Below, one piece after another: positions 5,661 to 64,000 of a DNA stretch of 64,000 bases. The notes beneath the pieces were generated by a model. It saw nothing but the letters and a program-made list of their open reading frames with translations. It had not been told where the DNA came from and searched no databases. The DNA is from a virus (lineage: Duplodnaviria > Heunggongvirae > Uroviricota > Caudoviricetes), in IMG/VR virus record IMGVR_UViG_3300042382_000594; one strand, 5' to 3'. Position 1 is the stretch's first letter. Every line of letters starts with the position of its first letter. The position numbers were made by a program, and so were the translations under genes.

Positions 5661-5903
5661 CTATCTAATATAATTGTGTTTACTTAATGATGCATGATAA
5701 TTTACTCCATTAATCCAATATGGATCGTACACTAAATTATCATTATGACATTTATTTTGTAATTGAACTTGTTTAAACTCTTGTTGTTCAACCATTTTTT
5801 GATCTAAATCAGATTTAAAATTTAAATCATAATAATATTGTTTTTGAACATTAATAGCTGTTATGTAATTCAAGCTGGAACTCATATTGGTGATCCTCTG
5901 CAT
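5661..5903 (-). CDS. hypothetical protein
   Basis: ORF track. Overlaps the ThyX start region by about 50 nt, so may be shorter or spurious. Confidence 0.2.
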   Translation of the reverse strand: MQRITNMSSSLNYITAINVQKQYYYDLNFKSDLDQKMVEQQEFKQVQLQNKCHNDNLVYDPYWINGVNYHASLSKHNYIR

Positions 5904-6717
5904 TAAATTTATTTAATTTTTGCTCTACTCTATCGCGATACTGTATCCAGCCTCTAAAGTTACGATACCAATATGATGGATCTCCTGGAGTTGCTTGATG
6001 TTCAGCTGGACTAGCATGAATTGGAACCGAACCAACCAATCTATCGTGTAATATAATATCATTTGCTAAATTAGCAGCACTACCATCATGATTGCTGTAA
6101 CTAACTCTAGCACAACGAGCTGTTGAAGCTTTTAATAAATCTTCTTCATCATAATATTTACGTTCTTCATCAGTAATGTACGGTAAATGCCACTCAGCAT
6201 GTTCTCTTTCAACAGATTCACTGGATTCAATAGCATCATAGATTGCTTTAGCTAGAGTTTGAATCTCAGGCTGAGCATCCGGATGAATTCTTAAATCAAA
6301 AAAGTTATCCCATTCTGTTGAAGTAACAATAACATTAATATATTGCCATGGCTCTAAAATTCTATTACCAATTTGTTTATGTAATCCAATTTTATCAAAT
6401 CCATAAGCAAAAATACAAGCAACTTTAGCTGAAGTTTTCCAAATAAATTTAGCAGCAGATAATTTCCATCCAGTTAATTCTTCATTAGCTTGCATTCCAG
6501 AAACATTAGCTCCCCAGTAAACCGGCATAGCTGGGTCATTCCAAACTTGAGAAATAATTTTACTAATTGGAATTGCTCTAGAACTAGATGCAGATCTAGA
6601 AAATACTCGATGTGTCATAAATTCTGCATGAATAAATCTAGGGTATTTTAATTGTAAAGTACAAATTCTATTATCAAAATCGTAATAAGAATCTGCAATC
6701 ATTTTAGCTGTAATCAT
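5851..6717 (-). CDS. thyX: FAD-dependent thymidylate synthase ThyX
   Basis: ThyX signature RHR-x7-S is present as MTHRVFSRSASSSRAIP. 288 aa. Confidence 0.75.
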   Translation of the reverse strand: MITAKMIADSYYDFDNRICTLQLKYPRFIHAEFMTHRVFSRSASSSRAIPISKIISQVWNDPAMPVYWGANVSGMQANEELTGWKLSAAKFIWKTSAKVACIFAYGFDKIGLHKQIGNRILEPWQYINVIVTSTEWDNFFDLRIHPDAQPEIQTLAKAIYDAIESSESVEREHAEWHLPYITDEERKYYDEEDLLKASTARCARVSYSNHDGSAANLANDIILHDRLVGSVPIHASPAEHQATPGDPSYWYRNFRGWIQYRDRVEQKLNKFNAEDHQYEFQLELHNSY

Positions 6718-13537: not shown

Positions 13538-14443
13538 TTATAATAGTTTTTCTTTAATCCAGTCAATCACATTTATAGTTGGAACCCAATTTGTTGCTAA
13601 TTTAAATTTAGTATTATCTGATAAATTATTTAATGCTTCGCCAGCTGGTTTTTTAATATAAACAATACTATCTGATAGAGTATTAGCAATTTCATTAATA
13701 GTTTTTGTTTCTCCATATCCAATATTAAATACTTGAGCTTTCCACATATCTGGATTTGTATCAAAATTATCAATACATCGTATATTAGCCTGAGCAATAT
13801 CTTTTACATGTATAAAATCTCGCTCTTGGGTTCCATCACCAGTAACTGTTAATGGTTTACCATCTTTTAATAATTTTTCAAAGATACCTAATACTAGCGC
13901 ATATTGACCAGATTTGGGAGAACGTTCACCATAAACATTAAAATAACGAAGAATAACTGATTTAATTCCGTAGATTTCATAATAGTTTCTCAAAAATAAT
14001 TCTGCTGCATACTTAGTTGATGCATACGCATTTAAACAATCTTCTCGCTCAGTTTCTTTTAGCGGAAAATTTGTATTTAATCCATATATTGAAGATGTTG
14101 AAGAGAAAACAATACCTTTAATCTTATTTGCTTTTGCTGCTTCTAATACCGAAACAACGCCTTTAATGTTAGAATCAATTGCTTTTCTTGGATTAGCAAT
14201 AGAAGCACCTAATCGCGATTCTGCTGCTAAATGAAATATAAATTCACACCCTCTACTAACTGATATTAATTGCTTAGTATTACAAATATCAAAATGATAA
14301 TTTTTAATATTCTCATTAAAATAAAATTGATCATTATCTGCTGATAAATCATCAACATTAACAACAGTATAACCAGAATCAACTAACAAATCAATTAAAT
14401 GACTTCCAATAAACCCGCAACCACCAGTAACCAATACTTTCAT
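13538..14443 (-). CDS. NAD-dependent sugar-nucleotide epimerase/reductase (extended SDR)
   Basis: N-terminal VLVTGGCGFIGSHL Rossmann motif and YASTKYAAE (YxxxK) catalytic motif. Confidence 0.8.
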   Translation of the reverse strand: MKVLVTGGCGFIGSHLIDLLVDSGYTVVNVDDLSADNDQFYFNENIKNYHFDICNTKQLISVSRGCEFIFHLAAESRLGASIANPRKAIDSNIKGVVSVLEAAKANKIKGIVFSSTSSIYGLNTNFPLKETEREDCLNAYASTKYAAELFLRNYYEIYGIKSVILRYFNVYGERSPKSGQYALVLGIFEKLLKDGKPLTVTGDGTQERDFIHVKDIAQANIRCIDNFDTNPDMWKAQVFNIGYGETKTINEIANTLSDSIVYIKKPAGEALNNLSDNTKFKLATNWVPTINVIDWIKEKLL

Positions 14444-15168
14444 ACATCACCATTTATTGTTTGTTTAAAATATAAATTTATTGAATCAAATATTTTTTGT
14501 TTCAATGCAGTAGCAGAATAACTATGATCGCGTTCTATAAAATAAACAGGTAATTCTAAATCTTTACCAGTGAAACTTTTATCTTTATAATCAGAACCCA
14601 AAAAACGAATGTCAAAATTATTTATCTCTAGTAAATTATACAATTCTTCTTCTGTAGAATAACAGATAACATTATCAATATATCTAATTGCAGATAATAT
14701 TTCAATACGTTCTTCTACTGTTTGTACTGGGGTAATTTTATTTGCTGGAGAAATATTTAATAATACTGTTAAATTAGTGCAATGTAATTTAGCTTCTTTA
14801 AACATTCTAACATATCCAGGATGAATAATATCAAACGCTCCAGCTAATACTCCAAATTTATTTGGAATTGAGTTTTTCCAATCATCAATGGAAACCCCTT
14901 TATCATCAATAAAAATATGAGCATGAGGTTTAATACCCATAAGCAATTTATGATGTTTTATACCCCATTTTCTTAATTGGTCTTCAGTTAAATCATAATG
15001 ATCAATTCCACTAACGCAACCTCTTGCAGTCATAATAATAATTTCATGGCCAGAATCATATAAACGGTTAATCTCATTAACTACAGTTTTATCTGGAATA
15101 GAATTATAATATTCGCTATTTTCAACAGAGGAACAAATCGTTCCGTCTAAATCAAAACAATAAATCAT
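14440..15168 (-). CDS. bifunctional HAD-type sugar phosphatase / cytidylyltransferase-like nucleotidyltransferase
   Basis: N-terminal CFDLDGT HAD motif I (GmhB-like). C-terminal GAFDIIHPGY matches the HxGH nucleotidyltransferase motif (RfaE/HldE domain II-like). Confidence 0.6.
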   Translation of the reverse strand: MIYCFDLDGTICSSVENSEYYNSIPDKTVVNEINRLYDSGHEIIIMTARGCVSGIDHYDLTEDQLRKWGIKHHKLLMGIKPHAHIFIDDKGVSIDDWKNSIPNKFGVLAGAFDIIHPGYVRMFKEAKLHCTNLTVLLNISPANKITPVQTVEERIEILSAIRYIDNVICYSTEEELYNLLEINNFDIRFLGSDYKDKSFTGKDLELPVYFIERDHSYSATALKQKIFDSINLYFKQTINGDV

Positions 15169-15680
15169 TCAACAACTCCATGCAAAAATATTTGGTGTAC
15201 GCACTCAACTACGCCATAATCTTTACTATTAACGTGATAATCAAATTTGGCATTACGACCTAAACGACCCAAAACTCTAGCACTGTTACTTTTTGCAAAT
15301 CCAGTTAATATTCCATAAGGGTAATCATTTGCTTCGCAATATTTAATTACCTTTAATATATTTTCTGATTCGCCAGAAGAACTTATTAAAATAATAAATG
15401 TATCATAAGTTCTGTATGCTTTTACAAATTCTAAATACGCATTTTCCATACCGTAATCGTTAATAAAACACGTTAACATAGATGGATCGGAAAACGTTAA
15501 AGAATGTTTATGACACTTTTTAACATAATCTTGCGAGATATGAGAAGCAACTGAATTGCTTCCTCCATTACCGATAATAATAAATTTATTGTTTTGCTTA
15601 AAAACGCTTTTAAATTTATTGTATTCTTCGGAATCTTCCATTTTAGATAAAATATCTATACAATCTTTTATTAAACTCAT
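15165..15680 (-). CDS. gmhA: SIS-domain sedoheptulose-7-phosphate isomerase (GmhA-like)
   Basis: IIGNGGSNSVASH matches the GmhA GNGGSAADAQH signature. 171 aa. Confidence 0.7.
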   Translation of the reverse strand: MSLIKDCIDILSKMEDSEEYNKFKSVFKQNNKFIIIGNGGSNSVASHISQDYVKKCHKHSLTFSDPSMLTCFINDYGMENAYLEFVKAYRTYDTFIILISSSGESENILKVIKYCEANDYPYGILTGFAKSNSARVLGRLGRNAKFDYHVNSKDYGVVECVHQIFLHGVVE

Positions 15681-16624
15681 ATTTTTATACCTTCTACACC
15701 TGATGAACTTACATTTATTTTAATATAAGGTAACGATAAAGTCAAGCAGTTTTTCTTTGAAAATACAAGATAAAATCCGCCATTTCCTGCACCGCATAAT
15801 TTATGAGCTAATACTGTCGGGTTATCTAATAATATTTGATCGATTTCAGCTACAGTTACATTCTCGGTAATTAAATTACTTGTTTCCTTTTTAAGTTTCC
15901 AGCTATCAGAAACATATTGCAAAAATAACTCATATTCTTCATTATATAATGCTTGTTGAGCCAACTCAACAATTTGAATTAGTCCACGAGATTTTTCTAT
16001 ATTATTAGTAACATCTTTTAATACGTTTTTTGAATTTCGATTAACCCCTGTAAAAACTAAATGCATATCATAAATATCAAATATTTTTGTTGGGAGGAAT
16101 GTATATCTAACCTTATTATTTCTCTCAAATTCAATACGCTTAAATCCGCCAACCCCGCAACCAAATGGATCTTGTAATCCACAATGCGGATTAAACTTTT
16201 GTTCTAATTCAAGAGCAATTAAACAAATTTCAGTATCAGTTAAATGTAATTCATTTTTAATAGATATCGCTTTAATTAAAGAAATAATATAAGCTGACGA
16301 AGATGCCAATCCACTCCCTTGTGAGTAAACATCGCTGGTTAATGAAATTGTTAGAGGATCTATATTAAAATATTCTAATACAACTCTAACAACTTCATTT
16401 TTTATATCTTTAGCAAAAGATTCTTCTTCTCTAATAGAATAATTAAGAACATATTTATGTAAATGTTTGTTATAACCAACTTTATCTTCATGAATTGTAA
16501 CATAGGTTTTTAAATCACAAGTAAAACTTATTACTGAGCCATATCCATATCTCTCAATAAAAAGAGGATTATCAGTAGAACCCCCGAATAAAGAAACCCT
16601 TAATGGACAATTCGTTACTATCAT
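15677..16624 (-). CDS. GHMP-family sugar kinase (HddA-like heptose-7-phosphate kinase)
   Basis: GHMP motif 2 (SQGSGLASSSAYI). Lies between GmhA and a phosphatase/NTase in a heptose-pathway context. Confidence 0.7.
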   Translation of the reverse strand: MIVTNCPLRVSLFGGSTDNPLFIERYGYGSVISFTCDLKTYVTIHEDKVGYNKHLHKYVLNYSIREEESFAKDIKNEVVRVVLEYFNIDPLTISLTSDVYSQGSGLASSSAYIISLIKAISIKNELHLTDTEICLIALELEQKFNPHCGLQDPFGCGVGGFKRIEFERNNKVRYTFLPTKIFDIYDMHLVFTGVNRNSKNVLKDVTNNIEKSRGLIQIVELAQQALYNEEYELFLQYVSDSWKLKKETSNLITENVTVAEIDQILLDNPTVLAHKLCGAGNGGFYLVFSKKNCLTLSLPYIKINVSSSGVEGIKI

Positions 16625-18340: not shown

Positions 18341-19123
18341 TTAATCCTTTTCGTACATTGATCTAGGAAAGTATGTTTCACCTAAACTTGAAATTGGCGG
18401 CATAAAGGGAGCATTTTTTATTGTATAGAAATCGCTATTACAAACTGAACCTATCCACATTTCAGCTTTTAGCCTAATAGAATTCCAAGTTCGTAAATCA
18501 GTAGAATTAATTAAATTTATCCACCAATCATTTTCCATTATATCAGGGAGTTTATTTATATGCGAAGATTTAGACCACCAAATTGTTCCTGAATAATGAG
18601 GAGTTGGCCATTCGCACAAATTAACTCCAGCGCAAGAATGTGTTTCTAATGCTTTAATACAAAGTTTCCAGTTTTCAACGCAACCCCATTCTAAAAACTT
18701 TCTCCAATTATAATAATTAACATATCTTCTAAAATCGCCTGCTTGTTTCATTCTACTTGTAGCAGTAACTCCTTTAGAATGAAGATAAAGAAAATAAGCA
18801 TCTTCGCGTTTAGCATGAGCCTGTAATTCTTTCATTGTTATAGTTTCGTCATGAGGATTATGATTATCCAAATAATTAGAAGATAATTGTTGATCATTTA
18901 ATTTAGTTTCACAACAATTTAATACTTGAATTTTATTAAACTGAGTACATAATCCAACAAATAAATTTATTTGTTCCGGTGAACCGATACAATTAACATA
19001 CATTTTTTCCAATTCATCATATAAACCGGAATTTATAGTTAAATAAACTTGGTCTATAAATAAACTAGACCAAGTTCCAGTATCATCAGTAAGGTAAATG
19101 TGATAATACAAATATTTTTTCAT
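18341..19123 (-). CDS. hypothetical protein within glycan cluster
   Basis: ORF track. 260 aa, Trp/Cys-rich. Location only. Confidence 0.25.
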   Translation of the reverse strand: MKKYLYYHIYLTDDTGTWSSLFIDQVYLTINSGLYDELEKMYVNCIGSPEQINLFVGLCTQFNKIQVLNCCETKLNDQQLSSNYLDNHNPHDETITMKELQAHAKREDAYFLYLHSKGVTATSRMKQAGDFRRYVNYYNWRKFLEWGCVENWKLCIKALETHSCAGVNLCEWPTPHYSGTIWWSKSSHINKLPDIMENDWWINLINSTDLRTWNSIRLKAEMWIGSVCNSDFYTIKNAPFMPPISSLGETYFPRSMYEKD

Positions 19124-27073: not shown

Positions 27074-27439
27074 TTATTTTCCTGTAAAGATTTTTTGTGG
27101 CGCAGTTAAGATTTTACCAAAAATTTTATTATATTGTTCAACAAATTGTTCGTCTGGTTCAATATAAAATACAACTAGATTTTTATTAATTTCAATCTTA
27201 TTTTTATTTTTCGGGTTATTATATTCTGGAAAAGGAGCAAATCCTACTGATTGTTCTTTTGGGTTTTCCAGCGAATCAGCAATAACTAATTGAATTGTAT
27301 CCTCGAACAAATCACACTCAGGTCGCGTTTCACATGGACCAAGATATGTACCTAAAACTGTTTCGCCAGACAATAATTTAAATTGTTTAACTGTCATTTT
27401 CTTCCTCAATTTTATAGATTTTAACACCGCATTTTTCAA
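27074..27439 (-). CDS. hypothetical protein
   Basis: ORF track. 121 aa. Confidence 0.3.
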   Translation of the reverse strand: MKNAVLKSIKLRKKMTVKQFKLLSGETVLGTYLGPCETRPECDLFEDTIQLVIADSLENPKEQSVGFAPFPEYNNPKNKNKIEINKNLVVFYIEPDEQFVEQYNKIFGKILTAPQKIFTGK

Positions 27440-27899
27440 GAAAACGAATACCTGCGGATGAACGATATTCGTTTTTATAATATAATGTTTTTATACCAGA
27501 ACTGTATATAATTTTTGCACACTGTAAACAAGGGCTATGAGTACAAATAATTGTTGCATCTATACCAGATTCTGTTGAACGCGCTAGTTGACTAATTGCA
27601 TTTGCCTCAGAATGAATTAACTCATCATAAGTTTTTAACCCTTCCCATGCATTTTTATTGGAATTATACGTGAATCTAGCTTGTTCGTCAATAGGTAATT
27701 TTGAAAATTCAACATTATCAATAGAAACTGGATATTCACAATCATTAGGCGTCCACCCTGCAGGCATTCCATTGTACCCACAGCTAATGATACGATTATT
27801 CTTTACTATGACCGTACCAACTTGTAAACGAGTCGCATAGGACAACTGAGCAGTTCTCTCGGCGACATCCATAAAGTATTTAACAAATTTTTCTTTCAT
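27387..27899 (-). CDS. cd: dCMP deaminase
   Basis: Zinc-binding HSEANAI and PCLQC motifs of the cytidine/dCMP deaminase family. Confidence 0.8.
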   Translation of the reverse strand: MKEKFVKYFMDVAERTAQLSYATRLQVGTVIVKNNRIISCGYNGMPAGWTPNDCEYPVSIDNVEFSKLPIDEQARFTYNSNKNAWEGLKTYDELIHSEANAISQLARSTESGIDATIICTHSPCLQCAKIIYSSGIKTLYYKNEYRSSAGIRFLEKCGVKIYKIEEENDS

Positions 27900-28280: not shown

Positions 28281-28709
28281 TTATTCTATTTGAAATATTT
28301 TAGGCTTTTTATTATCTGGTATTACATTTCTTAGCGATACATATAACATACCATCGGATAATGATACTTTATCGACTTCAACTGTATCAGCTATGGTAAA
28401 TGTTCTAGTAAAATCTCTTTCAGCAATTCCTTTATATAAGAATTCCGAATCTTTTTTAGATTCATCTGGTTTAATTTTACCTGTAACAACAAGTTTACCT
28501 GTATCTAAAGTAACTGAGATTTGATCTTTTGTATATCCAGCAACTGCCATTTTGATAACAAACTTCTCTTCAGACTGTTTGATAATATCATATGGAGGAA
28601 AACCAGTTTGAGGCTTTTCCAATTCAGTGATTCTACGAAATAATTCGTCAAAACCAATTAATGCTGAATTATGAATTGTTCTAAAAGTAGTTAAGTCTTT
28701 AGCGTACAT
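28281..28709 (-). CDS. small heat-shock protein (Hsp20/alpha-crystallin family)
   Basis: Alpha-crystallin domain features (YDIIKQSEEKFVIKMAVAGY...SDGMLYVSL). Confidence 0.85.
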   Translation of the reverse strand: MYAKDLTTFRTIHNSALIGFDELFRRITELEKPQTGFPPYDIIKQSEEKFVIKMAVAGYTKDQISVTLDTGKLVVTGKIKPDESKKDSEFLYKGIAERDFTRTFTIADTVEVDKVSLSDGMLYVSLRNVIPDNKKPKIFQIE

Positions 28710-33543: not shown

Positions 33544-34167
33544 TTAATTATTTACAATTACATCTAATATTTTTAACTCTAATTCTTGTAGAGTTCCATT
33601 ATTGTCAATTATATAGTCAATATGAGGATTTCCATACCAATCGTATTCAGATTTATGTATATTTTGCGATGCTGCATAAGCATCAAATACAGATTTATCT
33701 AACGAATCAAGATAACCGTACCAGTTAGGTCGTGTTTCTTTTCTATCAATTTGAATAAATACAGCTCCAATAGATTTTAAGAAACTAATCTCGTTTTTAA
33801 ATCTAACATCAGTAATAACTACATTATCATACTGTTGAATTTTTCGCTCAAGAGAATCAACCCAAATTCCATCAAGTAAATTTTCTCTACAAACTTCTGT
33901 ACCAAAATACTGTAGTATATATCTAGGTGTTATAGGTTTATTAAATTTAACCGACCAAAAAGTATCAACAGTTTCACGAAAAACTCTAGATTCTTCGGTG
34001 TCACCTTCTAATAAAGCTCTATCCCAACCAAAAATAGAAGATACTGCATCTTTTAATGAGCCAGCAAAAGATAGAGCAGTAAAATTATTTTCTACTAAAA
34101 TATCGCCAGCAGTTCCTTTTCCAGAACCAATAAAACCAAGTAACCCAATAATCATAATATAACCCAA
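33544..34167 (-). CDS. 1: deoxynucleoside monophosphate kinase (T4 gp1-like)
   Basis: P-loop GFIGSGKGT. VVITDVRFKNEISFLKSIGAVFIQIDR and the C-terminal IDNNGTLQELELKI resemble T4 gp1 (IVPDTRQDHE...GATVIHVVRP, ITNDGSLEELFSKI). Confidence 0.6.
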   Translation of the reverse strand: MGYIMIIGLLGFIGSGKGTAGDILVENNFTALSFAGSLKDAVSSIFGWDRALLEGDTEESRVFRETVDTFWSVKFNKPITPRYILQYFGTEVCRENLLDGIWVDSLERKIQQYDNVVITDVRFKNEISFLKSIGAVFIQIDRKETRPNWYGYLDSLDKSVFDAYAASQNIHKSEYDWYGNPHIDYIIDNNGTLQELELKILDVIVNN

Positions 34168-36164: not shown

Positions 36165-36473
36165 TTAAGTAGTCTCTTTTAAAATTTGTTCGTTAATTTT
36201 ATTTTGTATATCTTCTGGTATTGCGAATATCTTTTCGGTAATCTCGGAATTATATTTAGATGCAGCAGTTTCTCGTACCTTTTTAATTGCTTCGGCTTCT
36301 CTGGATGGAATTAAAGGAATTTTTGAAATATCCTCAGCATAATGAATTTTACACGAATATTCTTGAACTTCATTAAATGCTCGAATATCTTCTATAAAAT
36401 GCCTAAAATGTATTTTACTTAATTTCCAAATAGTAGAAATAGTTACACATGTACGACATTTACTTCTTGTCAT
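36165..36473 (-). CDS. hypothetical protein
   Basis: ORF track. 102 aa. Confidence 0.25.
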   Translation of the reverse strand: MTRSKCRTCVTISTIWKLSKIHFRHFIEDIRAFNEVQEYSCKIHYAEDISKIPLIPSREAEAIKKVRETAASKYNSEITEKIFAIPEDIQNKINEQILKETT

Positions 36474-37071
36474 TTTTACCTCTCTTTTTCGTGATTATGC
36501 GACTCTTTACGAATTTCTTAATTTTTTTATTTAGAGCAGTTTCAGCTCGTTCTAAAACAAATTTAGAAACTTTAGTTTTAAAATCAATTCCATTTAATCT
36601 ATCTATTCCTTGTTGAATAATTCTTGAAGTTAAACCATCGAACCTAGTCATCTTTTCATTTCCTTCAAAATCTTGATATGAAACAATAACTGTAGTAGGG
36701 CGTTTAACTACCATTAATAAACCCATATTACTCAAATCAGATTCTTCTAGTAAAATTTCGCCATGCGATTCAATAACAATAGGATTGAAAAATGCAACAA
36801 AATTATCTGCAACTCCAGCAACCAATACTTTATGCTCTAATCCGCATTGATTTGCAGCAATTCCATATACTTTATGAAATTTACATGTTGCAATTAACTT
36901 TGAAGCAATTTCGCTAGAATTTAATTCAGTATTGGTAAAATCGAAGTGTTTTAACTTTGTAGTTAAAACTGGATCTTTTTGATCACATAATTCATAACCA
37001 AGAAATTGAGGTTCAGGCACTGCTGCAGCCTGAGAAACTACATCAGCAGTATTATATATAAACTCACTCAT
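36460..37071 (-). CDS. peptide deformylase-like protein with substituted metal-ligand motifs
   Basis: Motif 1 is GIAANQCG (PDF GφGφAAxQ). The EGCLS position reads EESDLS and the HExxH position reads QQGIDRLNG. Carries a Lys-rich C-terminal tail. Confidence 0.55.
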   Translation of the reverse strand: MSEFIYNTADVVSQAAAVPEPQFLGYELCDQKDPVLTTKLKHFDFTNTELNSSEIASKLIATCKFHKVYGIAANQCGLEHKVLVAGVADNFVAFFNPIVIESHGEILLEESDLSNMGLLMVVKRPTTVIVSYQDFEGNEKMTRFDGLTSRIIQQGIDRLNGIDFKTKVSKFVLERAETALNKKIKKFVKSRIITKKRGKNDKK

Positions 37072-44643: not shown

Positions 44644-46026
44644 ATGGTAAAAGTTGTAGTTTTAAAACCGGAAGAGGTAACTCCAAGACCCGATTTGGTT
44701 GGTAAATGGCTTAATGAAAGTCATTATAGAATATTAGTTGAAGAAGATTTAGATGTATATCTTCCTCCAGATTGCGCAGATTTTACTGCCGAAGAAAACT
44801 GTGATAACAATATGGAATGTAATTCTTGTCATAAAGGGTTATCTGAAAAGAATATTGTATTTAAGTTTCGTAAAAATTTCTTTAATAAAGAAGAGGCTGA
44901 TGCAGCTTACGCGGGTTTACGTGATGCAGCTGTTGAAACTCAAAATCGCGGTATGGCTGGTGGACCAAGAACTGCTACATGCGCAGGAAGAGAATGGGTT
45001 ACTGATGAACAATTTGATTTATTAGAATTCTTTGCACATAAAAATTCGACTTCAGTATTCGGCGGATATACGCCAAAGGCAGATGTTGATTTAATACGAG
45101 CCAAGTATAAAAATCTTAAATCTGATGATAGTCGTGGTGTCGTCTGGTTGACTGAGCAAATTAGAGCTGAGAAATTTGTATTTAATGACTTTATCGATAA
45201 ATTATGCGCATTAACTATTGATGAAGCAAAAGCTGAAGCTCAACGAGTATTAGATAAATTGATTAGTAAAACGACTTATGCTAATGTCGTAAATTCTGGT
45301 ATTGCTGGTTGGTATGATAGATATCCTAGAATTCCTTTTGGTAGACCAACTACCTATACAAGAGATAATCTAGAAAAGTTTTCTAAGTCTTATCCATTCT
45401 TACAATCTTTAGCTAAAGGTTTTAAGGATATGTTGCCATGGCGTTATGGTAATCAAAAACGAGCTGCAGAATCAATTGATCAAAGATTTGTTGTACCAGA
45501 TACTCCATTTACGACAATTACAGTAAATAAAAACTTTCGAACCGCTGGCCATTACGATCCAGCTAATATGGAAGATGGATTCGCTAATCTTTGTGTTATG
45601 TCAAATAATGATCAATATGAAGGATGTTATTTAGTATTTCCGGAAATTGGTTATGCAGTTGATGTCAGACCTACTGATTTATTATTAGTAAATAATCAAG
45701 CTGGATTACATGGTAATACTGAATTAAAACTAAAAGATCCAGATGCAGAAAGAATTAGTATGATTGCGTTTTTCCATGAAGGTATGTTAACGCTTGGTAC
45801 TTATGATTACGAGAATACTCGCAGAGAATTTATTGATAGTCGTAGATTAAATCCCGATCATCCAGACCAAAGATACCGTTGGAATGGCATCACTCCTGGA
45901 TTATGGGAATCTGATGAGTGGATTGATTATTTGTTAGCTCAACCGCAAGGCAAAGGTTGGTTAGAATCCTATCACAAAGATTTGTATGACCGTAGATTCG
46001 GTAACAGTTTAGATAACTTTTTTTAA
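44644..46026 (+). CDS. 2-oxoglutarate/Fe(II)-dependent oxygenase with long N-terminal extension
   Basis: HYD (HxD), then LHGNT about 60 aa later, then ERIS (RxS): the classic 2OG-Fe(II)-oxygenase facial triad plus 2OG-binding Arg. Strong AGGAGA RBS. Confidence 0.55.
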   Translation: MVKVVVLKPEEVTPRPDLVGKWLNESHYRILVEEDLDVYLPPDCADFTAEENCDNNMECNSCHKGLSEKNIVFKFRKNFFNKEEADAAYAGLRDAAVETQNRGMAGGPRTATCAGREWVTDEQFDLLEFFAHKNSTSVFGGYTPKADVDLIRAKYKNLKSDDSRGVVWLTEQIRAEKFVFNDFIDKLCALTIDEAKAEAQRVLDKLISKTTYANVVNSGIAGWYDRYPRIPFGRPTTYTRDNLEKFSKSYPFLQSLAKGFKDMLPWRYGNQKRAAESIDQRFVVPDTPFTTITVNKNFRTAGHYDPANMEDGFANLCVMSNNDQYEGCYLVFPEIGYAVDVRPTDLLLVNNQAGLHGNTELKLKDPDAERISMIAFFHEGMLTLGTYDYENTRREFIDSRRLNPDHPDQRYRWNGITPGLWESDEWIDYLLAQPQGKGWLESYHKDLYDRRFGNSLDNFF

Positions 46027-46034
46027 GGTAGATT

Positions 46035-46844
46035 ATGAAATTGAATATTGCAATTCCTTCGTATAAACGATCTGATACGCTTAGAGATAAAACTTTAAGT
46101 GTATTGGAGAAATATAATGTAGATCCAAGTACAGTAACAATCTTTGTTGCTAATGATGCCGAAAAGACTGCATACGAAACATCATTAAAAGATAACATTT
46201 ATAACAAAAATATTGTTGTGGGTGTTGTTGGTATGGGACCAATTAGAAACTTTATTAGAAATTATTATGATGAGGGGGAATTTGTTGTAAATTTTGATGA
46301 TGATTTATCGAGTATTATGCGCAAAGCTCCTGCTGATGAAAAGAAAATGGAGCCAATTGAAGATATCCATAAAGAAGTATTTGAGCCAATGTATAATATT
46401 ATGCAGGAGAACGAAAATAAGCTCTGTGGTGTCTATGCAGCGTCGAATGCGTTTTTTATGAGTTATACCCCTAAGACTGGTTTATATTACTGCATTGGGT
46501 CGCTGTGGGGCTGCATTAACGATAAACATCAAGATCGTATGGTTCAATTATGCGATAAAGAAGATTTTGAGCGAACTCTTCAACATTATGTTCTTGATGG
46601 TTCAGTTTCGCGATTAGACAATATTACTGTTATATCCAAATATTATACTGAAGATGGAGGAATGCAAGTTGAACGAACTCTTGAACGTATTGATAAAAGT
46701 GCTGACGATTTAGTTCGTAGATTTCCAGATTTATGTACAAAATACGTCCGTGAAACTACAGGTCACGCTGAATTACGCTTACGGGATACTAGTGGAGGTA
46801 AATATCAAAAATCCACTTCTTTTGGTTTAGATAGTTTTTTCTAA
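46035..46844 (+). CDS. GT-A fold glycosyltransferase
   Basis: N-terminal IAIPSYKRSD and DxD-like NFDDDL. Start lies 9 nt after the oxygenase stop. Confidence 0.5.
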   Translation: MKLNIAIPSYKRSDTLRDKTLSVLEKYNVDPSTVTIFVANDAEKTAYETSLKDNIYNKNIVVGVVGMGPIRNFIRNYYDEGEFVVNFDDDLSSIMRKAPADEKKMEPIEDIHKEVFEPMYNIMQENENKLCGVYAASNAFFMSYTPKTGLYYCIGSLWGCINDKHQDRMVQLCDKEDFERTLQHYVLDGSVSRLDNITVISKYYTEDGGMQVERTLERIDKSADDLVRRFPDLCTKYVRETTGHAELRLRDTSGGKYQKSTSFGLDSFF

Positions 46845-58991: not shown

Positions 58992-59738
58992 TTATCCAAC
59001 TAAAAATTGAACAGGCAATTCGTATCTATCTTGCATTTCAGTTTCTAATCTTTGAATATCTGCTGTTGCCTCATCATATGTTTCTTTTCCGTTTAATGTT
59101 AATCCACCTGGAAGTTGAATACCGCCAAATTTTTTCATATTATCACCCCATTGACGTTTAAACAATGAAGTAACGTATTCTTTTAGCCAACGGTCATTAT
59201 AAACGCTTTCATATGTTTCTGGATCAATAGCTTTATATCCTTCTGCAATTACATTAGTACCAACTGGTATTTGAGCAGAACCCCAACCCCAATCAACATA
59301 TAACTTACGAGTATGCCTTTGAAATCTAATTGGAACGTCTCCAGTAAACATCTCGCTTAAATTTTGGAGATGTTGCATTGTAATAGAGAAATTAGTATAT
59401 GACGTCGATGTAAAATCATATAATTCATGGAGGCGAAGTTGATATCTTAAATCAAACATATTATTTTTTGTAATTGTATCATTAAGAGGAAATACTCTTG
59501 TAATACCTAAAATGCCTGGATCGACATTAAAATACCTTTGATTAACATCTTCTTGTGTAATTACATGCATCCAATAAAAAGATTCAGTTGCATCATAATG
59601 GTAATCTTGATAGAATTGTAATGCATCATCTATTCTATCTTCTAATTGATTATCATCAACATTTATCTTTATTACTGGAGCACCTAATCTTCTTAGAGCA
59701 TAATCTTTTAATTCATCTCTTGTTGTAACATGTGCCAT
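58992..59738 (-). CDS. 13: neck protein gp13
   Basis: ELKDYALRRLGAPVIKINV aligns with T4 gp13 ELKDVILRRLGAPIINVEL. The C-terminus LPGGLTLNGKE resembles LPGGVTIDGQR. Confidence 0.8.
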   Translation of the reverse strand: MAHVTTRDELKDYALRRLGAPVIKINVDDNQLEDRIDDALQFYQDYHYDATESFYWMHVITQEDVNQRYFNVDPGILGITRVFPLNDTITKNNMFDLRYQLRLHELYDFTSTSYTNFSITMQHLQNLSEMFTGDVPIRFQRHTRKLYVDWGWGSAQIPVGTNVIAEGYKAIDPETYESVYNDRWLKEYVTSLFKRQWGDNMKKFGGIQLPGGLTLNGKETYDEATADIQRLETEMQDRYELPVQFLVG

Positions 59739-59769: not shown

Positions 59770-59777
59770 TATTTATA
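59770..59777 (-). promoter_or_regulatory. T4-type late promoter TATAAATA (minus strand) for gene 13
   Basis: Plus strand reads tatttata, about 32 nt upstream of the start. Confidence 0.45.
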
Positions 59778-59791
59778 ATAAAAGGATTATT

Positions 59792-60193
59792 TTAAAATAA
59801 TGCTTTTTTTACTTGTGTAGCCCAATAATATGCGTGCTTACTATCAACCCTAACGTTAAAATTATTTGGTTTTTCAAATATTTTATTTGTATTCTCGTAT
59901 TCGCATCTATCAATCGTATCCATAAATATCATTAAATCTGCTCTAAAATATTTTCTAATTTCGTTAGTTGGAGCAACGAAATCACAAATAACATAATCAG
60001 CTTTAGAATCCTCGGCTAATCTTTTTATTCTATCACATTGACGAATTCTTCCTTGATCGCTAAAATCCCAATCATTATACTGTTTTCTAATCTCATCTGC
60101 ATTAAACCATTCAGAATTTGGTAAAATTTTAGCCAATTCCCTTGCTAATGTTGTTTTACCGGAATTAGGTAATCCCATTATTAAAATTTTCAT
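59792..60193 (-). CDS. adenylylsulfate (APS) kinase-like P-loop kinase, short form
   Basis: [17 protein letters not shown] matches [43 protein letters not shown] matches [44 protein letters not shown] matches the CysC ISP motif. Confidence 0.5.
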   Translation of the reverse strand: [133 protein letters not shown]

Positions 60194-60201
60194 GTTTTTC
60201 T

Positions 60202-60765
60202 CTATTGGTGAGTATGATATCTTGGTGGCTTATGGATAATTGCATTGATTCTAACTTGACTGCATACATTTCCATATGTATTAGATATATCAATAATTTC
60301 TTGCATATTATGATTAGACATATCAGTATCACAATCATAAGCTACTTGTGATACTTCTATATCAACATTGCACTGATACCCTAATGTAGTTTCCTGACCC
60401 CCAGATTCAATTGTTTGTTTATTTCTATGTTGATTAAACATATCAATTGTAACAGGCGTAATTTTTCTGCAGTGTGTTGGGTCGTGGTGAAAGTTCTCGT
60501 GATTATGATGCGGAACTACAATCTTTAATTGACCTTGATCGCTTAAAATTCTATAAAATTCTTTAATAATATTTAAAAAGGTATCTGTTTGCTGCCCAAG
60601 ATGTTCTAATACATGATTAAGAATAATTTCGTCAACAGAATTATCATCGAACGGTAATTTAGTTTCTAAATTTGCTATTACATCAGGGTTACAATTTTGA
60701 TCATAATCGACGTTGATATATCCATCTAATTTATTATATCCGCACCCAAGGTTTAATTTAATCAT
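60202..60765 (-). CDS. class I SAM-dependent methyltransferase
   Basis: LNLGCGYNKLDGYINVD (motif I) and LPFDDNSVDEIILNHVLEHL (motifs II/III). Confidence 0.7.
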   Translation of the reverse strand: MIKLNLGCGYNKLDGYINVDYDQNCNPDVIANLETKLPFDDNSVDEIILNHVLEHLGQQTDTFLNIIKEFYRILSDQGQLKIVVPHHNHENFHHDPTHCRKITPVTIDMFNQHRNKQTIESGGQETTLGYQCNVDIEVSQVAYDCDTDMSNHNMQEIIDISNTYGNVCSQVRINAIIHKPPRYHTHQ

Positions 60766-62114
60766 AATAAATTGTTATTGTTAGGTAGGGAAATGGTGGA
60801 ATTTCCATATACTTGTCTGATTTCTAATTTCGATTTGAGTTGATTCATTGGTTCTGCCCATGATTTCCATTTAATTTGTCTTAATAGAGTCGTATTCTTA
60901 TACCAGATAGTTGATGTATCTGTTGTTGAACTCCATAGATAGTATTCAAATATTGGAGTAAAAATATAAGTTTCTTTTCCTAATGCTCCAGCTGCATGAG
61001 GCACAGAAGTACAGCTGGAAACGACATAATCTAAATTATATATTAATCCTAGAGTATCATCAAATGTTTTTAATTTAGCCGATAAATCAATTATTGGTCT
61101 AATGTTGGAATGAATTGGTTCTTGATGTAATGAAACTAATACTGCTTGTTCCGAAATATTAGATACTAATTCGTCTAAATCTAGAGTTCGATGTAAATTA
61201 TGTTCGTATCCTATTTCTCCATAATATTTAATACCAACGCAACCTCTATATTGTTTAAACTTTTCGATAGATTCAGGAGTAGCTGTTAAGTAAGGTCCTT
61301 TATCAATTTCATGTTCATCTAGATTTAATAGGTACGGTAATCTCATAGAAACACACCAAACTGTATATTTGGTTGAGTCTAATTCAGTCACGTGTTCGAT
61401 TGCTTGATATCCCATTCTAATAATAATATCTCGAATATCTTTTCTATGAGTCTTCCATACTGGGATCATACCTAACGCTTTAATATTTTCAAGAAATCTT
61501 ATGTTAATAATTTCATCGCCATATCCGCCATAAGATTCAATTAATAATACTGCATCTTGAATAGGAGTTTTATCCCAATAATCGAAATTGTATTTATTGG
61601 TTTCTTTAGGTTTAGAGTTATCCCAAATACAAGACAACCCTTTATTAAATTCATGTCTTGATAGATAATATGCGGTAAGATTATGTTTGACTGCATTACG
61701 AATTGCTGAATTATTAGACTTTTGTTCAAGTTCTAATAAAAGCTTATTAGCTTCATCCCTATTATTTAACAATGATAAAGATATAGACTTTTCAATTAAC
61801 ACATCTTCATTATTGGGGGTTTTATTAAGCACCCAGTTTGACAATTCCAATGATTTATGTGGCTCATTTAATAAATTATAAACTCGAGTTAAATTAACTT
61901 TAATAAAATATTCTTCTTGCTCGGTAGCAATCTCTAATTCTCTAATTGCTAAGTCTATAACTTCTTGATAAAAATGAAGTTTATCGTAAATTACAATAAT
62001 TTCATCCATTTGCTCTATCGTAAATGCATGTAATTCAAAAGTTTTAAGTAATTCGCGCGCCAAATTACTTTTATTATTGTCATGCAAAAACATAGCTATT
62101 TCTAACAACGTCAT
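60762..62114 (-). CDS. TPR-repeat N-terminal domain fused to GT9-family (heptosyltransferase-like) glycosyltransferase
   Basis: C-terminal LIYNLDYVVSSCTSVPHAAGALGKETYIFTPIFEYYLW matches the heptosyltransferase signature LI...DL.I..DSGPMHLAAALG.P.V.LFGPT. The N-terminal 170 aa are helical repeats. Confidence 0.55.
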   Translation of the reverse strand: MTLLEIAMFLHDNNKSNLARELLKTFELHAFTIEQMDEIIVIYDKLHFYQEVIDLAIRELEIATEQEEYFIKVNLTRVYNLLNEPHKSLELSNWVLNKTPNNEDVLIEKSISLSLLNNRDEANKLLLELEQKSNNSAIRNAVKHNLTAYYLSRHEFNKGLSCIWDNSKPKETNKYNFDYWDKTPIQDAVLLIESYGGYGDEIINIRFLENIKALGMIPVWKTHRKDIRDIIIRMGYQAIEHVTELDSTKYTVWCVSMRLPYLLNLDEHEIDKGPYLTATPESIEKFKQYRGCVGIKYYGEIGYEHNLHRTLDLDELVSNISEQAVLVSLHQEPIHSNIRPIIDLSAKLKTFDDTLGLIYNLDYVVSSCTSVPHAAGALGKETYIFTPIFEYYLWSSTTDTSTIWYKNTTLLRQIKWKSWAEPMNQLKSKLEIRQVYGNSTISLPNNNNLL

Positions 62115-62136
62115 ACTATAATTTCTCGTTTATATG

Positions 62137-62904
62137 TTATTTCCAGAATTCCATACCTTTTACATGCTGTTGAATATCTGGCGGAATAATACATGGTCTA
62201 TTAATAAATGATACTTTCTTTCTGGTAGTATGTAATCCAGGCATATTAACATCGGCATCAAATTCATCAAATGAAAATTCCACGTCATCAAAATTATGTT
62301 CGAAATACGGTTTTTCTATAAATTTGTAAATTCGTTGCATCTCAACTTTAGGATTTTTAGCTAAATTTTCATAATCTACTATTAACATCATTGATCGTTC
62401 TGTTGAAAAATACCCTTGTTTTAATGCATGATACGCAAACCCAAGAGTTCTATTATCACTTAATAATGTCTGAGTTCTTGTATAAACATTAACGTTTTCT
62501 TCAGGGGAAAACATACTAGAAGCTGTATATGGATTTTTTCTAATCAACGTTTCGAATGAATCTAAAATCCATCTAATCTCTCTAACACAAACAATTACCT
62601 TAGCTTGAGGAAATAAATCCTTCAATAATGGTAACATTAATGGATATCCACGATTTGTATCAAAATGTACTTTATCGCCTTCAAAATATGTATCAAAGAT
62701 AGATTTAATAATTGCTTTACGTTTTAATTCTGTGCATTGAAATCTATAACCACCTTGATCAGATGATTGTTCAATAATTGCTCTGGTAAATCTAGCAACT
62801 GGACCTGAGATAGATGCATTAAAATCTGGATTTTGATTTAATATTGTTGATAATAATGTAGTTCCTGAACGAGGTAATCCCGTAATGAAGTTGTATTCTT
62901 TCAT
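62137..62904 (-). CDS. sulfotransferase-family protein
   Basis: N-terminal ITGLPRSGTTLLSTIL matches the PAPS 5'-phosphosulfate-binding motif (PKSGTTWL). 255 aa. Confidence 0.55.
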   Translation of the reverse strand: MKEYNFITGLPRSGTTLLSTILNQNPDFNASISGPVARFTRAIIEQSSDQGGYRFQCTELKRKAIIKSIFDTYFEGDKVHFDTNRGYPLMLPLLKDLFPQAKVIVCVREIRWILDSFETLIRKNPYTASSMFSPEENVNVYTRTQTLLSDNRTLGFAYHALKQGYFSTERSMMLIVDYENLAKNPKVEMQRIYKFIEKPYFEHNFDDVEFSFDEFDADVNMPGLHTTRKKVSFINRPCIIPPDIQQHVKGMEFWK

Positions 62905-62942: not shown

Positions 62943-64000
62943 TTAAAACTGGGACTTTATTTCGGCTACACTGAAGCTATTACTGTATGCCACATTCTTC
63001 CAGGTCAATAAACTACCAACTTGTACTGGACTTGATCTTGAAGTAGTATCGCCTAATCCTAATTGTCCATAACCATTATATCCCCAAGCCCATGAAGACC
63101 CATCGGTTTTTATAGCTCTAGTAGAAAAGGATGTAGGCGCGTTTGATATTTTATTCCAGTTTAATAGCGATCCAACTTGTACTGGGCTTGATCTATTGAT
63201 TCTATCGATTAATCCTAACTCACCTTGGGTGTTGGTTCCCCAAGCCCATAAAGACCCATCGGTTTTTGTAGCTACTGTATGAAAGTATCCGCCTGATAGA
63301 TTATTCCAAGTCAATAAATTTCCAACTTGAACTGGGCTTGATCTAAAGGTAGTATCGCCTAATCCTAATTGCCCATATTCATTACCTCCCCAAGCCCACA
63401 AAGACCCATCGGTTTTTGTAGCTAACACGTAGTAGCCACCGCCTGCTACCTTATCCCAAGTTAATAAAGATCCAACTTGAACTGGACTTGATCTAGCAAT
63501 ATTATCGCCTAATCCTAATTGCCCTTGCCAGTTATATCCCCAAGCCCATAAAGACCCATCGGTTTTTGTAGCTACTGTATGAAAGTATCCGCATGCCACA
63601 TTCTTCCAGGTCAATAAACTACCAACTTGTACTGGACTTGATCTTGAAGTAGTATCGCCTAATCCTAACTCTCCAGAAGAGTTATATCCGCAAGCCCATA
63701 AAGATCCATCGGTTTTTGTAGCTAAAGTATATTTTCCTCCACATGATACGTTCTTCCATGTCAATAATGATCCAACTTGTACTGGACTTGATCTATGAGT
63801 ACGATCGCCTAATCCTAACTGACCAAATTCATTATATCCCCAAGCCCATAAAGATCCATCGGTTTTTGTAGCTAAAGTGTGTTGACTCCCGCATGCTAAT
63901 TTATTCCAAGTTGTTAAACTTCCAATTTGTACGGGGCTAGATCTAGAAATAGCATTATCGCCTAATCCTAATTGGCCTAAGCCGTTAGCTCCACAAGAGA
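62943..64000 (-). CDS. RCC1-repeat beta-propeller protein (putative fibre/host-recognition protein), N-terminus beyond window
   Basis: About 52-aa repeats with GELGLGDTTSRSSPVQVGSLLTWKNVA..G.HT.A.KTDGSLWAWG.N (RCC1 blade). The reading frame stays open past the TTG used by the ORF track and continues to the window end. Confidence 0.7.
   Translation of the reverse strand, partial: SCGANGLGQLGLGDNAISRSSPVQIGSLTTWNKLACGSQHTLATKTDGSLWAWGYNEFGQLGLGDRTHRSSPVQVGSLLTWKNVSCGGKYTLATKTDGSLWACGYNSSGELGLGDTTSRSSPVQVGSLLTWKNVACGYFHTVATKTDGSLWAWGYNWQGQLGLGDNIARSSPVQVGSLLTWDKVAGGGYYVLATKTDGSLWAWGGNEYGQLGLGDTTFRSSPVQVGNLLTWNNLSGGYFHTVATKTDGSLWAWGTNTQGELGLIDRINRSSPVQVGSLLNWNKISNAPTSFSTRAIKTDGSSWAWGYNGYGQLGLGDTTSRSSPVQVGSLLTWKNVAYSNSFSVAEIKSQF
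62990..64000. repeat. tandem DNA repeats (about 156-nt unit) encoding the RCC1 blades
   Basis: Near-identical 50-60-nt blocks recur at 63041, 63341 and 63641 (cctaattg.ccat. .cattat. .ccccaagcccat...), and again at 63241 and 63541 (ccaagcccataaagacccatcggtttttgtagctactgtatgaaagtatccgc). Confidence 0.7.

Follow-up and report, generated by a model that had tools for sequence, protein, structure and literature searches.

Rhizobia sulfate their Nod factors by means of NodP/NodQ, a dedicated ATP sulfurylase and adenosine 5'-phosphosulfate (APS) kinase, which act together with the sulfotransferase NodH. Among viruses, chlorovirus PBCV-1 encodes A064R, in which two glycosyltransferase (GT) domains are joined to a sugar methyltransferase domain, and mycobacteriophages glycosylate their capsid or tail; the glycans of giant viruses have been reviewed (PMC9614988). 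The characterised enzymes of GT family 9 (GT9) use ADP-heptose as their donor. The function of phage sulfotransferases has been described as one that "remains unclear" (PMC10580990). Here we analysed a four-gene cluster in a 64,000-nucleotide stretch of viral DNA (IMG/VR record IMGVR_UViG_3300042382_000594; hereafter the window), whose source is the 213,894-bp contig Ga0335039_0000003 (JGI 3300034355) of a T4-like freshwater phage. An original prediction, made from the sequence alone, had proposed that these genes, lying between neck gene 13 and an RCC1-repeat protein, form a sulfation, methylation and heptosylation module.

We interpret the four genes as a conserved glycan-decoration module of T4-like aquatic phages that is probably expressed late, and we assign the overall mechanism a probability of about 0.6. 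The tetratricopeptide repeat (TPR) array of the TPR-GT9 enzyme would bind a protein substrate, to which the GT9-fold domain would transfer heptose; its most likely donor would be ADP-heptose produced by phage-encoded enzymes. The small S-adenosylmethionine (SAM)-dependent methyltransferase would then O-methylate that glycan, and the sulfotransferase would sulfate it with 3'-phosphoadenosine 5'-phosphosulfate (PAPS), which the mini APS kinase would make from APS supplied by the host ATP sulfurylase; the phage's own kinase would thereby provide a donor that the host may under-supply. The acceptor would most likely be the adjoining RCC1-repeat protein or proteins of the fibre region, or another virion surface protein, and the outcome would be virions bearing an anionic, methylated heptose decoration. 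We are more confident than this overall figure that the genes are a coupled module for PAPS-dependent sulfation, and less confident that the heptose goes on RCC1 proteins; the identities of the donor sugar and of the acceptor, the sequence of the reactions, the placement of methyl and sulfate on the sugar, and late expression are inferences. Comparative genomics, predicted structures and sequence data support the original prediction as far as such evidence reaches, with the corrections given below.

The four open reading frames (ORFs) were all found at the predicted coordinates and in the predicted number, orientation and fibre-region placement beside RCC1. They are tightly packed on the minus strand at 59792-62904 of the AT-rich window (G+C about 31%), in the order RCC1-sulfotransferase-GT9-methyltransferase-kinase-gp13, with the 450-aa gene and the methyltransferase gene sharing 4 bp. 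The motifs PRSGTTLL and VPHAAGALG, which had been quoted for the sulfotransferase and the 450-aa protein, occur literally in the sequence. Because the same genes are present in identical form on 12 metagenomic contigs and each family has hundreds of homologues, we consider them real genes and not chance ORFs. Near-identical copies of the source contig have been assembled from several metagenomes; megablast of the region against 50,697 deposited phages returned no match, and on this evidence the phage is one without a close cultured relative.

Upstream, the module is preceded by RCC1-repeat proteins 385, 403 and 383 aa long, by a tail-fibre-like protein with DUF4376, and by one of 938 aa that matches PHROGs for the long-tail-fibre distal subunit and the baseplate wedge. 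The RCC1 ORF that runs off the window end is the 383-aa protein of the source contig and the last of the three RCC1 paralogues in the fibre region. Past the module in transcription order come the genes for gp13, gp14, gp15, terminase, sheath, tube and portal (gp13-gp20). A T4-type late-promoter-like TATAAATA was located between the kinase and gp13 genes; the next upstream TATAAATA on this strand precedes the 938-aa fibre gene (L001:2507), with none between the two. The fibre genes, RCC1 genes and module may thus form one late transcription unit, an arrangement that is suggestive only, as the count of this motif in the window is not above chance, which weakens the operon inference.

The conserved adjacency of the RCC1 genes, together with the TPR plus GT-B architecture typical of protein glycosyltransferases, makes the RCC1 proteins the best acceptor candidates. 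The same setting bears on a different target, namely the host cell surface: by adding sulfated and methylated heptose to an envelope glycan such as the lipopolysaccharide (LPS) core or capsule, the module could prevent superinfection, for instance, or free progeny from receptors. This we regard as rather unlikely. The module lies consistently between RCC1/fibre and neck genes, in several gene orders; the fusion of TPR to GT-B is the architecture of protein glycosyltransferases such as OGT; and no separate late-promoter motif occurs within the fibre-to-kinase stretch. No flippase, polymerase or membrane-anchoring gene was seen in the module, the four proteins not having been scanned for membrane segments.

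The linkage of the genes was examined in IMG/VR, which yielded 339 confirmed sulfotransferase loci in 2.9 million contigs and at least 503 GT9-like loci. We scored neighbours within 10 kb in 238 loci, seeded with the sulfotransferase (79), the GT9-like protein (79) or the kinase (80). Sulfotransferase-seeded loci carried a GT9-like gene in 58 cases (73%), a methyltransferase in 56 (71%), RCC1 in 55 (70%), the kinase in 39 (49%) and gp13 in 37. Reciprocally, GT9-seeded loci carried the sulfotransferase in 60 cases (76%), a methyltransferase in 55 (70%), RCC1 in 65 (82%), the kinase in 23 and gp13 in 18, and the corresponding counts for kinase-seeded loci were 31 for the sulfotransferase, 20 for the GT9-like gene, 9 for the methyltransferase, 19 for RCC1 and 13 for gp13. 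The sulfotransferase was thus near the kinase in 31 of 80 kinase loci, against about 0.01 expected under independence.

Gene fusions were also observed. An N-terminal sulfotransferase is fused to the GT9-like domain in 3 database proteins of about 595 aa and in 8 IMG/VR loci, suggesting that the two enzymes share a substrate, and one locus (L144:6966-8702) encodes a methyltransferase-GT9 fusion. At 26 viral loci the start of the kinase gene lies within a few bases of where the sulfotransferase gene ends, or the two genes overlap there. Besides the window order, we found RCC1-sulfotransferase-methyltransferase-GT9-kinase-gp13, RCC1-methyltransferase-GT9-sulfotransferase-kinase, sulfotransferase-kinase-methyltransferase-GT9 and GT9-DUF8361-RCC1-sulfotransferase. 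Since gene order varies so widely, selection on linkage, and not only inherited synteny, appears to hold the genes together. The fusions, the translational coupling and the reciprocal co-occurrence all indicate that the four genes are one coupled system.

These counts are relevant to the idea that the genes form only partly one pathway, the mini-kinase serving sulfur assimilation in general, as an auxiliary metabolic gene that raises PAPS and cysteine synthesis in the host, and the GT, methyltransferase and sulfotransferase acting independently of it. Virome surveys do count viral cysC among the assimilatory sulfur genes, together with cysD and cysH, the kinase family is found in cysI-cysH operons of cells, and about half of the kinase-bearing viral loci, as well as phages Salvo, Sano, DLP6 and phiRSL1, lack this sulfotransferase family near the kinase. 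However, homologues of cysH or cysI were present in 0 of the 238 viral loci, and the share of sulfotransferase-seeded loci with a kinase nearby and the abutting or overlapping gene ends speak for a joint role; a sulfotransferase moreover requires PAPS regardless of what else the kinase does. We judge this explanation to be distinctly unlikely.

The sulfotransferase is the most secure of the four predicted assignments. It matched Sulfotransfer_3 (PF13469) with E 5.4e-20 (73 bits against a threshold of 27), Sulfotransfer_1 (PF00685) with E 6.9e-14 (52.3 against 22) and phrog_27463 with E 2.8e-40. Its 5'-phosphosulfate-binding motif (5'-PSB), G9-L10-P11-R12-S13-G14-T15-T16, and its 3'-phosphate-binding motif (3'-PB), R108...S116 with the canonical 8-residue spacing, are invariant or nearly so among 32 homologues and align with the motifs of TPST1. 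Both motifs being intact, the proposed refutation, a generic P-loop NTPase without the 3'-PB motif, does not describe this 255-aa protein. The nearest PDB sequences were the tyrosylprotein sulfotransferases TPST1/2, at only E 7e-5. Several phages carry two sulfotransferase paralogues 4-5 kb apart. In a separate set of loci (L145-L166), a sulfotransferase and a long kinase lie near gp13 without GT9-like, methyltransferase or RCC1 genes, for which reason the sulfation acceptor must differ there.

The kinase matched Pfam APS_kinase (PF01583) with 34.7 bits against a gathering score of 21.1, covering profile positions 5-97 of 152, and its family matched APS kinases in profile comparisons with E 3e-10 to 1e-5. 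Its AlphaFold2 (AF2) model had a predicted local distance difference test (pLDDT) score of 96, and when this model was compared with the PDB using Foldseek, the best 35 matches were all APS kinases (TMq 0.76-0.86), with gluconate and shikimate kinases, which had been named as possible alternatives, ranking lower. We mapped functional residues through a 49-sequence family alignment against the APS kinase of P. chrysogenum (1M7G). The P-loop is present, followed by N31-A-D33-x-x-R36, D43-F44-S45-x-x-G-R49 and F72-V-A-P75. Five positions are invariant in the 49 members (D63, R66, F75, R80 and P108 of 1M7G, corresponding to D33, R36, F44, R49 and P75), and the conservative changes are D61 to N31, N83 to Q52, and I-S to V-A within F-I-S-P (F72-V-A-P75). 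The original prediction had listed the P-loop and an LDGDNIR...ENIRR region as conserved; the former is kept, but the latter is found only as a divergent form beginning FNADEIRK.

In the AF2 model the lid is predicted to comprise 22 residues, including a single short helix, that connect the fourth strand (87-91) to the fifth (114-116). The alignment to APS kinases stops before, or skips, the lid motif RDxKGLY...FTG, where the family consensus reads IxxxxYEDTNxxFExP, and structure prediction thus gave a negative answer as to whether the APS-binding lid is retained. The protein had been described as a truncated CysC, a description that we revise, since proteins of 130-140 aa make up a large family of which it is a member: 4,755 database proteins matched it, the best matches being 128-155 aa long. 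Judging from sequence and model, the kinase is a lid-shortened variant of the APS-kinase family and not a canonical CysC, and it most likely converts APS to PAPS. Within the approximately 84 kb covered, the phage encodes just this step, and the APS presumably comes from the host.

A kinase with a different substrate, either a NadR-like ribosylnicotinamide kinase or a Cj1415-like CDP-amidate kinase, would imply that the "sulfotransferase" moves another group, and we consider this improbable. Cj1415-like CDP-amidate kinase acts in the synthesis of O-methyl-phosphoramidate (MeOPN) in Campylobacter. A different substrate would be in keeping with the fusion of long kinases to a NadM/nicotinamide mononucleotide adenylyltransferase (NMNAT)-type domain, the presence of NRK1 and NadR among weak sequence matches, the score of the best NCBIfam model far under its cut-off, and the shortened lid, which helps define the substrate pocket. 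The APS-contacting residues are nevertheless invariant, NRK1 was outside the top 50 structural matches, profile E-values were 3 to 6 orders of magnitude better for APS kinases than for NRK1, and the family is linked to sulfotransferases, CysH and CysI. NadR-like NAD salvage as the primary role was rejected on the structural ranking and the sulfur-gene context. The Campylobacter MeOPN-type pathway was considered because its kinase is APS-kinase-like; its partner enzymes (glutamine kinase, phosphoglutamine cytidylyltransferase and gamma-glutamyl hydrolase) were not among the Pfam annotations of the window and its flanks, and the transferase is a true sulfotransferase-family protein.

For the 450-aa protein, the model (pLDDT 92.7) has eleven helices in its first 164 residues and two Rossmann-like halves after them, and a structure search with this model placed the GT-B domain nearest to solved GT9 enzymes, including the protein heptosyltransferase TibC. 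The family profile matched the TPR domain of OGT with E 6e-28, and 69 homologues grade into bacterial-type proteins with many TPR matches and PF01075 above threshold. The model and the profile comparison together confirm the proposed fusion of TPR and GT9 folds, though without a Pfam match. The match to PF01075 was reached only by the distant homologues P0060, P0062 and P0064 (26-28 bits against a gathering score of 22); the protein itself had no match to a PDB sequence or to GT41 in Pfam, and a scan of cellular genomes with this single protein found no relatives. In the family alignment, G197-x-x-D200 is invariant and T369, S370 and H373 (T369-S370-x-x-H373) are nearly so, the equivalence to D13/D261 of WaaC being taken from motif position. 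The combination that marks bacterial autotransporter heptosyltransferases (BAHT), a closer resemblance to TibC than to LPS heptosyltransferases together with an adjoining autotransporter acceptor, was not found.

The methyltransferase matched Methyltransf_11 (PF08241) with 30.9 bits (gathering score 21.2), only the C-terminal half of the profile being matched, and phrog_6636, annotated "methyltransferase", with E 6.6e-14. Its motif I, LNLGCG, occupies residues 4-9 at the extreme N-terminus. The above-threshold match and the glycine-rich motif I agree with the predicted class I SAM methyltransferase. The best NCBIfam match, albeit weak, was MftM, an oligosaccharide O-methyltransferase.

Heptose is the most likely sugar on account of the donor of characterised GT9 enzymes and of comparative gene placement. 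In many related phages, the two genes that separate the kinase from gp13 encode clear homologues of HldE (E 1e-85 to 1e-89) and HldD (E 9e-59). The window itself has a sugar cluster at 11.7-21.6 kb, whose NCBIfam matches are all below curated cut-offs, and homologues of three of its genes are attached to the module elsewhere: those of its short-chain dehydrogenase/reductase (SDR) and nucleotidyltransferase genes are found inside the module of related phages, where they are clear HldD and HldE, and in 18 other viral loci a DUF8361 homologue separates the GT9-like gene from that of the sulfotransferase. Moreover, HldE or HldD occurred within 10 kb in 30 of 157 GT9-bearing loci, compared with 7 of 81 loci without a GT9-like gene. 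We therefore hold moderate confidence in heptose as the sugar of the module, tempered by the Asp-to-Cys change described below, and the window heptose cluster may feed it. The claim that this cluster supplies the heptose is thus strengthened by HldE and HldD in the modules of relatives and weakened by a rival use of the cluster on DNA.

This rival use arises from a Tet/JBP-family dioxygenase (460 aa), which is followed by a 269-aa ORF on the strand opposite to most genes, and from a dCMP deaminase, a DNMK-type dNMP kinase and a faint Thy1-like protein that are also encoded in the window. The set suggests cytosine hypermodification of the phage DNA, a pathway to which two GT2 genes and the 11.7-21.6 kb heptose cluster could belong, and TET-linked phage clusters have been reported to install mono- or di-heptose on 5-hydroxymethylcytosine (5hmC) in DNA. 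That the module itself decorates DNA, adding heptose and then methyl or sulfate to Tet/JBP-initiated 5hmC, is highly improbable despite these genes and the position of the heptose cluster beside replication genes, given that the conserved neighbours of the module are RCC1/fibre and neck genes and not Tet or replication genes, that the described TET-cluster DNA glycosyltransferases resemble T4 beta-GT, BshA, MshA or GT-A folds and not TPR-GT9, and that TPR domains are protein-binding. We know of no precedent for sulfation of DNA.

Several observations weigh against the proposed glycan-decoration mechanism. The kinase falls below every NCBIfam equivalog cut-off (PRK05541, 39 bits against 127; apsK, 26 bits against 138.7), and its lid has about half the usual length, a difference of approximately 20 residues from characterised APS kinases. 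No ATP sulfurylase (Sat/CysDN) was present among the Pfam families of the window and 10 kb on each side (approximately 84 kb of phage), and a hidden Markov model (HMM) of the NMNAT-like domain, built from long kinases, had zero matches in the window, L001-L007 and L091. The 450-aa protein has no PF01075 (E<=0.1) or TPR match in Pfam, and the phage clade reads S-C-T-S-V-P-H (with C368) where distant TPR-GT9 relatives read N-D-T-S-V-A-H; homologues P0052, P0055 and P0058 also have Cys, in S-C-T-S-V-x-H. As the donor-site Asp, which would be expected to contact the donor sugar, is Cys in the phage clade, the donor may not be ADP-heptose, and the change may signal altered donor specificity. Most GT9-bearing loci show neither HldE nor HldD within 10 kb, in 238 other loci no homologue of GmhA or HddA came within 10 kb of the module, and the window heptose cluster is 40 kb off, beside replication genes, in a genome that also encodes Tet/JBP. 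It is adjacency only that points to RCC1 as the acceptor. Finally, many of the loci belong to related T4-like phages, so that the counts are not independent events, and kinases without this sulfotransferase family nearby make up about half of the viral set and include those of cultured phages (Salvo, DLP6).

Table 1. Positions of the module genes, their surroundings and comparable loci. Positions are those of the window unless a locus number (L) precedes them.
Feature	Position	Strand	Basis or remark
Mini APS-kinase-family protein, 133 aa	59792-60193	-	Pfam APS_kinase, AF2 model, Foldseek
Small class I SAM-dependent methyltransferase, 187 aa	60202-60765	-	Methyltransf_11, phrog_6636
450-aa TPR + GT9-fold protein	60762-62114	-	Predicted fold, homologues
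GT-B (GT9-fold) catalytic domain of the 450-aa protein, ~aa 180-440	60795-61577	-	
TPR-like helical repeat domain, N-terminal in the 450-aa protein, ~aa 1-165	61620-62114	-	
PAPS-type sulfotransferase, 255 aa	62137-62904	-	Sulfotransfer_3, Sulfotransfer_1, phrog_27463
RCC1-repeat beta-propeller protein, off window end	62943-64000	-	PF00415 E 1.2e-54, WD40_RLD E 3e-59
T4-type late-promoter-like TATAAATA	59770-59777	-	Between kinase and gp13
gp13 neck/head-tail adaptor, downstream module boundary	58992-59738	-	PF26809 Phage_T4_gp13, phrog_211 E 7e-40
SDR epimerase	13538-14443	-	Homologues in module of relatives
Haloacid dehalogenase (HAD) phosphatase~RfaE-II-like adenylyltransferase	14440-15168	-	rfaE_dom_II E 1e-13
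GmhA-like isomerase	15165-15680	-	gmhA E 1.4e-14
HddA-like heptose-7-P kinase (GHMP-type)	15677-16624	-	HddA E 1.3e-26
DUF8361 protein of sugar cluster	18341-19123	-	Homologue placement in other loci
Tet/JBP-family dioxygenase, then 269-aa ORF	44644-46844	+	
dCMP deaminase, DNMK-type dNMP kinase, Thy1-like protein	27387-27899, 33544-34167, 5851-6717	-	
Peptide deformylase, HSP20-family chaperone, small PAAR-motif protein, Band_7/SPFH protein, MazG	36460-37071, 28281-28709, about 28.8-29.0 kb, 4016-4861, 5242-5652	-	
Surface-type proteins just outside window start	L091:14138-21710		
Loci with two sulfotransferases or module-less sulfotransferase + long kinase	L165, L166, L158, L163, L164, L148, L131, L017		Sulfotransferase- and kinase-seeded
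Long-kinase examples	L049:9995-10786, L035:7031-7819, L009:6992-7738, L010:7001-7732		L009, Xylella phage Salvo gp32; L010, Stenotrophomonas phage DLP6
RfaE-II-type genes beside long kinase	L077:9485-9979, L080:3948-4418, L084:9522-9992, L045:2012-2425, L071:9371-9805		
Extra ORFs of ~320-325 aa	L033:6867-7844, L146:10756-11718, L159:1512-2495, L161:10756-11739		
cysI-cysH-kinase operons	L254:4396-8757, L263:4434-8754, L269:1660-5994, L282:2-3918		Alphaproteobacterial single-amplified and metagenome-assembled genomes

The kinase of the window has no C-terminal adenylyltransferase domain, a domain that is found in the long homologues of the family. These made up 55 of 88 viral ORFs and are about 262-280 aa long, with a C-terminal adenylyltransferase domain of approximately 120 aa carrying the motifs GRW/YQPWHxGH and ISATKIR. 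The nearest relatives of this domain are NMNATs of the NadM type (2QJT, E 9e-9; 1F9A, E 1.6e-8), and it had no match to ATP sulfurylase. The order of domains, kinase N-terminal and adenylyltransferase C-terminal, is like that of metazoan PAPS synthase, and a long kinase could be either a minimal PAPS synthase or an NAD-related enzyme. In several phages, which carry either the kinase only or the module, a stand-alone heptose-1-P adenylyltransferase of the RfaE-domain-II type lies directly beside the long kinase (E 1e-51 for L045) and links it to heptose genes also at loci that show no GT9-like gene. Some phages have a further ORF of approximately 320-325 aa, with a weak match to the kinase HMM and none in Pfam; placed after the sulfotransferase and before the long kinase or the reverse, it is an additional member of the module.

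Cellular chromosomes carry the mini-kinase as well, with at least 574 genome hits, mostly in Pelagibacteraceae and SAR86. In four alphaproteobacterial genomes the family lies inside a sulfate-assimilation operon with the order TP_methylase (uroporphyrinogen methylase), CysI (NIR_SIR), CysH (PAPS_reduct), DUF2061, mini-kinase and NMNAT-like adenylyltransferase, with CbiX upstream in L254. This membership in cysI-cysH operons places the kinase family in sulfate activation. No CysDN or Sat, the canonical ATP sulfurylases, was found in those four operons, where the kinase and the adenylyltransferase are the sole candidates for sulfate activation, suggesting a non-canonical ATP sulfurylase. Among the 80 best cellular loci (L250-L329), 65 had the mini-kinase with an adjoining or overlapping NMNAT-like ORF as a conserved pair, carried almost entirely by Pelagibacteraceae (SAR11, including HIMB1456 and HIMB1444) and SAR86. 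The contexts of the pair vary and include a Cys/Met pyridoxal phosphate enzyme with a major facilitator superfamily transporter, and DAO/GCV_T with a methyltransferase and an M24 peptidase. The pair would be a non-canonical minimal PAPS synthase common to phages, SAR11 and SAR86, with the adenylyltransferase serving as ATP sulfurylase. SAR11 has been described as lacking assimilatory sulfate reduction (PMC5069961), and an annotated APS kinase has already been noted in SAR11 genomes (PMC3448164). If our reading of the pair is correct, SAR11 cells could activate sulfate; its presence in cysI-cysH operons hints at possible non-canonical sulfate activation in abundant marine bacteria.

Other accessory genes of the window encode a peptide deformylase, an HSP20-family chaperone, a small PAAR-motif protein, a Band_7/SPFH protein and MazG. 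Just outside the window start lie surface-type proteins of 1,044 aa (without a Pfam match), 875 aa (weak YadA_head) and 1,772 aa (Laminin_G), which may mark another adhesin or fibre locus of this phage.

If the proposed mechanism holds, the module would be the first phage-encoded sulfation system and would produce the first heptose-based virion glycan in phages, and the IMG/VR counts of sulfotransferase and GT9-like loci indicate that it is not rare. An anionic, methylated glycan on receptor-binding proteins could help to adjust the host range, protect fibres against proteases or decoy binding, or imitate surface glycans of the host. The mechanism offers a testable function for phage sulfotransferases and for many phage RCC1 proteins. 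Viral cysC, routinely scored as assimilatory sulfur metabolism, here appears tied to a sulfotransferase. More broadly, it is a tentative proposal, which we think somewhat less likely to be right than wrong, that RCC1-repeat receptor-binding fibres of aquatic T4-like phages are coated with sulfated, O-methylated heptose, a post-translational modification of virions that would be new, and that a large share of viral cysC genes supply the PAPS for this purpose.

In comparison with known systems, the closest functional analogue is NodPQ with NodH, which likewise places its own PAPS supply beside a sulfotransferase in a carbohydrate-decorating cluster, apart from housekeeping sulfate assimilation. 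Whereas NodPQ are full homologues of CysD and CysN-CysC and perform both activation steps, the module here has a 133-aa lid-shortened kinase and no ATP sulfurylase was found with it; the Nod acceptor is a lipo-chitooligosaccharide, in contrast to the presumed protein-linked heptose of a lytic-type phage. With CysC and the kinase domain of PAPS synthase, the mini-kinase shares the fold, the P-loop, the catalytic Asp, two phosphosulfate-binding Arg residues and the adenine-stacking Phe. It differs from CysC in length (133 aa against about 175-200 aa), in having Asn for the first Asp of DGD and VAP for ISP, and in its halved lid, and in many of its relatives an NMNAT-type adenylyltransferase, either as a fused domain or as the following gene, takes the place of ATP sulfurylase.

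The GT9 and BAHT enzymes WaaC, WaaF and TibC have no TPR array, unlike the 450-aa protein, which carries one at its N-terminus; compared with these enzymes and AAH, it also lacks a PF01075 match and has Cys for Asp in D-T-S-x-x-H. TibC and AAH act in an autotransporter setting, whereas its neighbour is an RCC1 propeller. OGT and SPINDLY follow the same logic of a TPR array joined to a GT-B transferase, but the catalytic domain here is GT9-like and not GT41. The chlorovirus and mycobacteriophage systems also combine a virus-encoded glycosyltransferase with a sugar-modifying methyltransferase, sometimes fused, acting on structural proteins. To our knowledge, they contain no sulfotransferase, PAPS-supply kinase or GT9-fold enzyme, and their sugars are rhamnose, xylose, fucose and hexoses, not heptose.

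A homologous layout was found in Synechococcus phage S-SRM01 (gp334-gp349, NC_070963), with the order long tail fibre-RCC1-RCC1-TPR protein-...-RCC1-sulfotransferase-glycosyltransferase-epimerase. Its TPR protein is 31% identical to the 450-aa protein and its sulfotransferase 28% identical to that of the window, and tblastn found no kinase homologue in its genome. These genes are annotated singly, and the literature searched assigns no function to the set. A phage module of heptosyltransferase, methyltransferase, sulfotransferase and APS kinase was likewise undescribed in that literature. The statement that phage-encoded PAPS synthesis with a sulfotransferase is essentially undescribed thus holds for the functional link and requires qualification for the genes, since those of S-SRM01 were annotated and lists of auxiliary metabolic genes commonly include viral cysC. 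The enzyme families and virus-encoded glycan decoration are known; what is new is the predicted sulfation branch, the mini-kinase and the association with RCC1.

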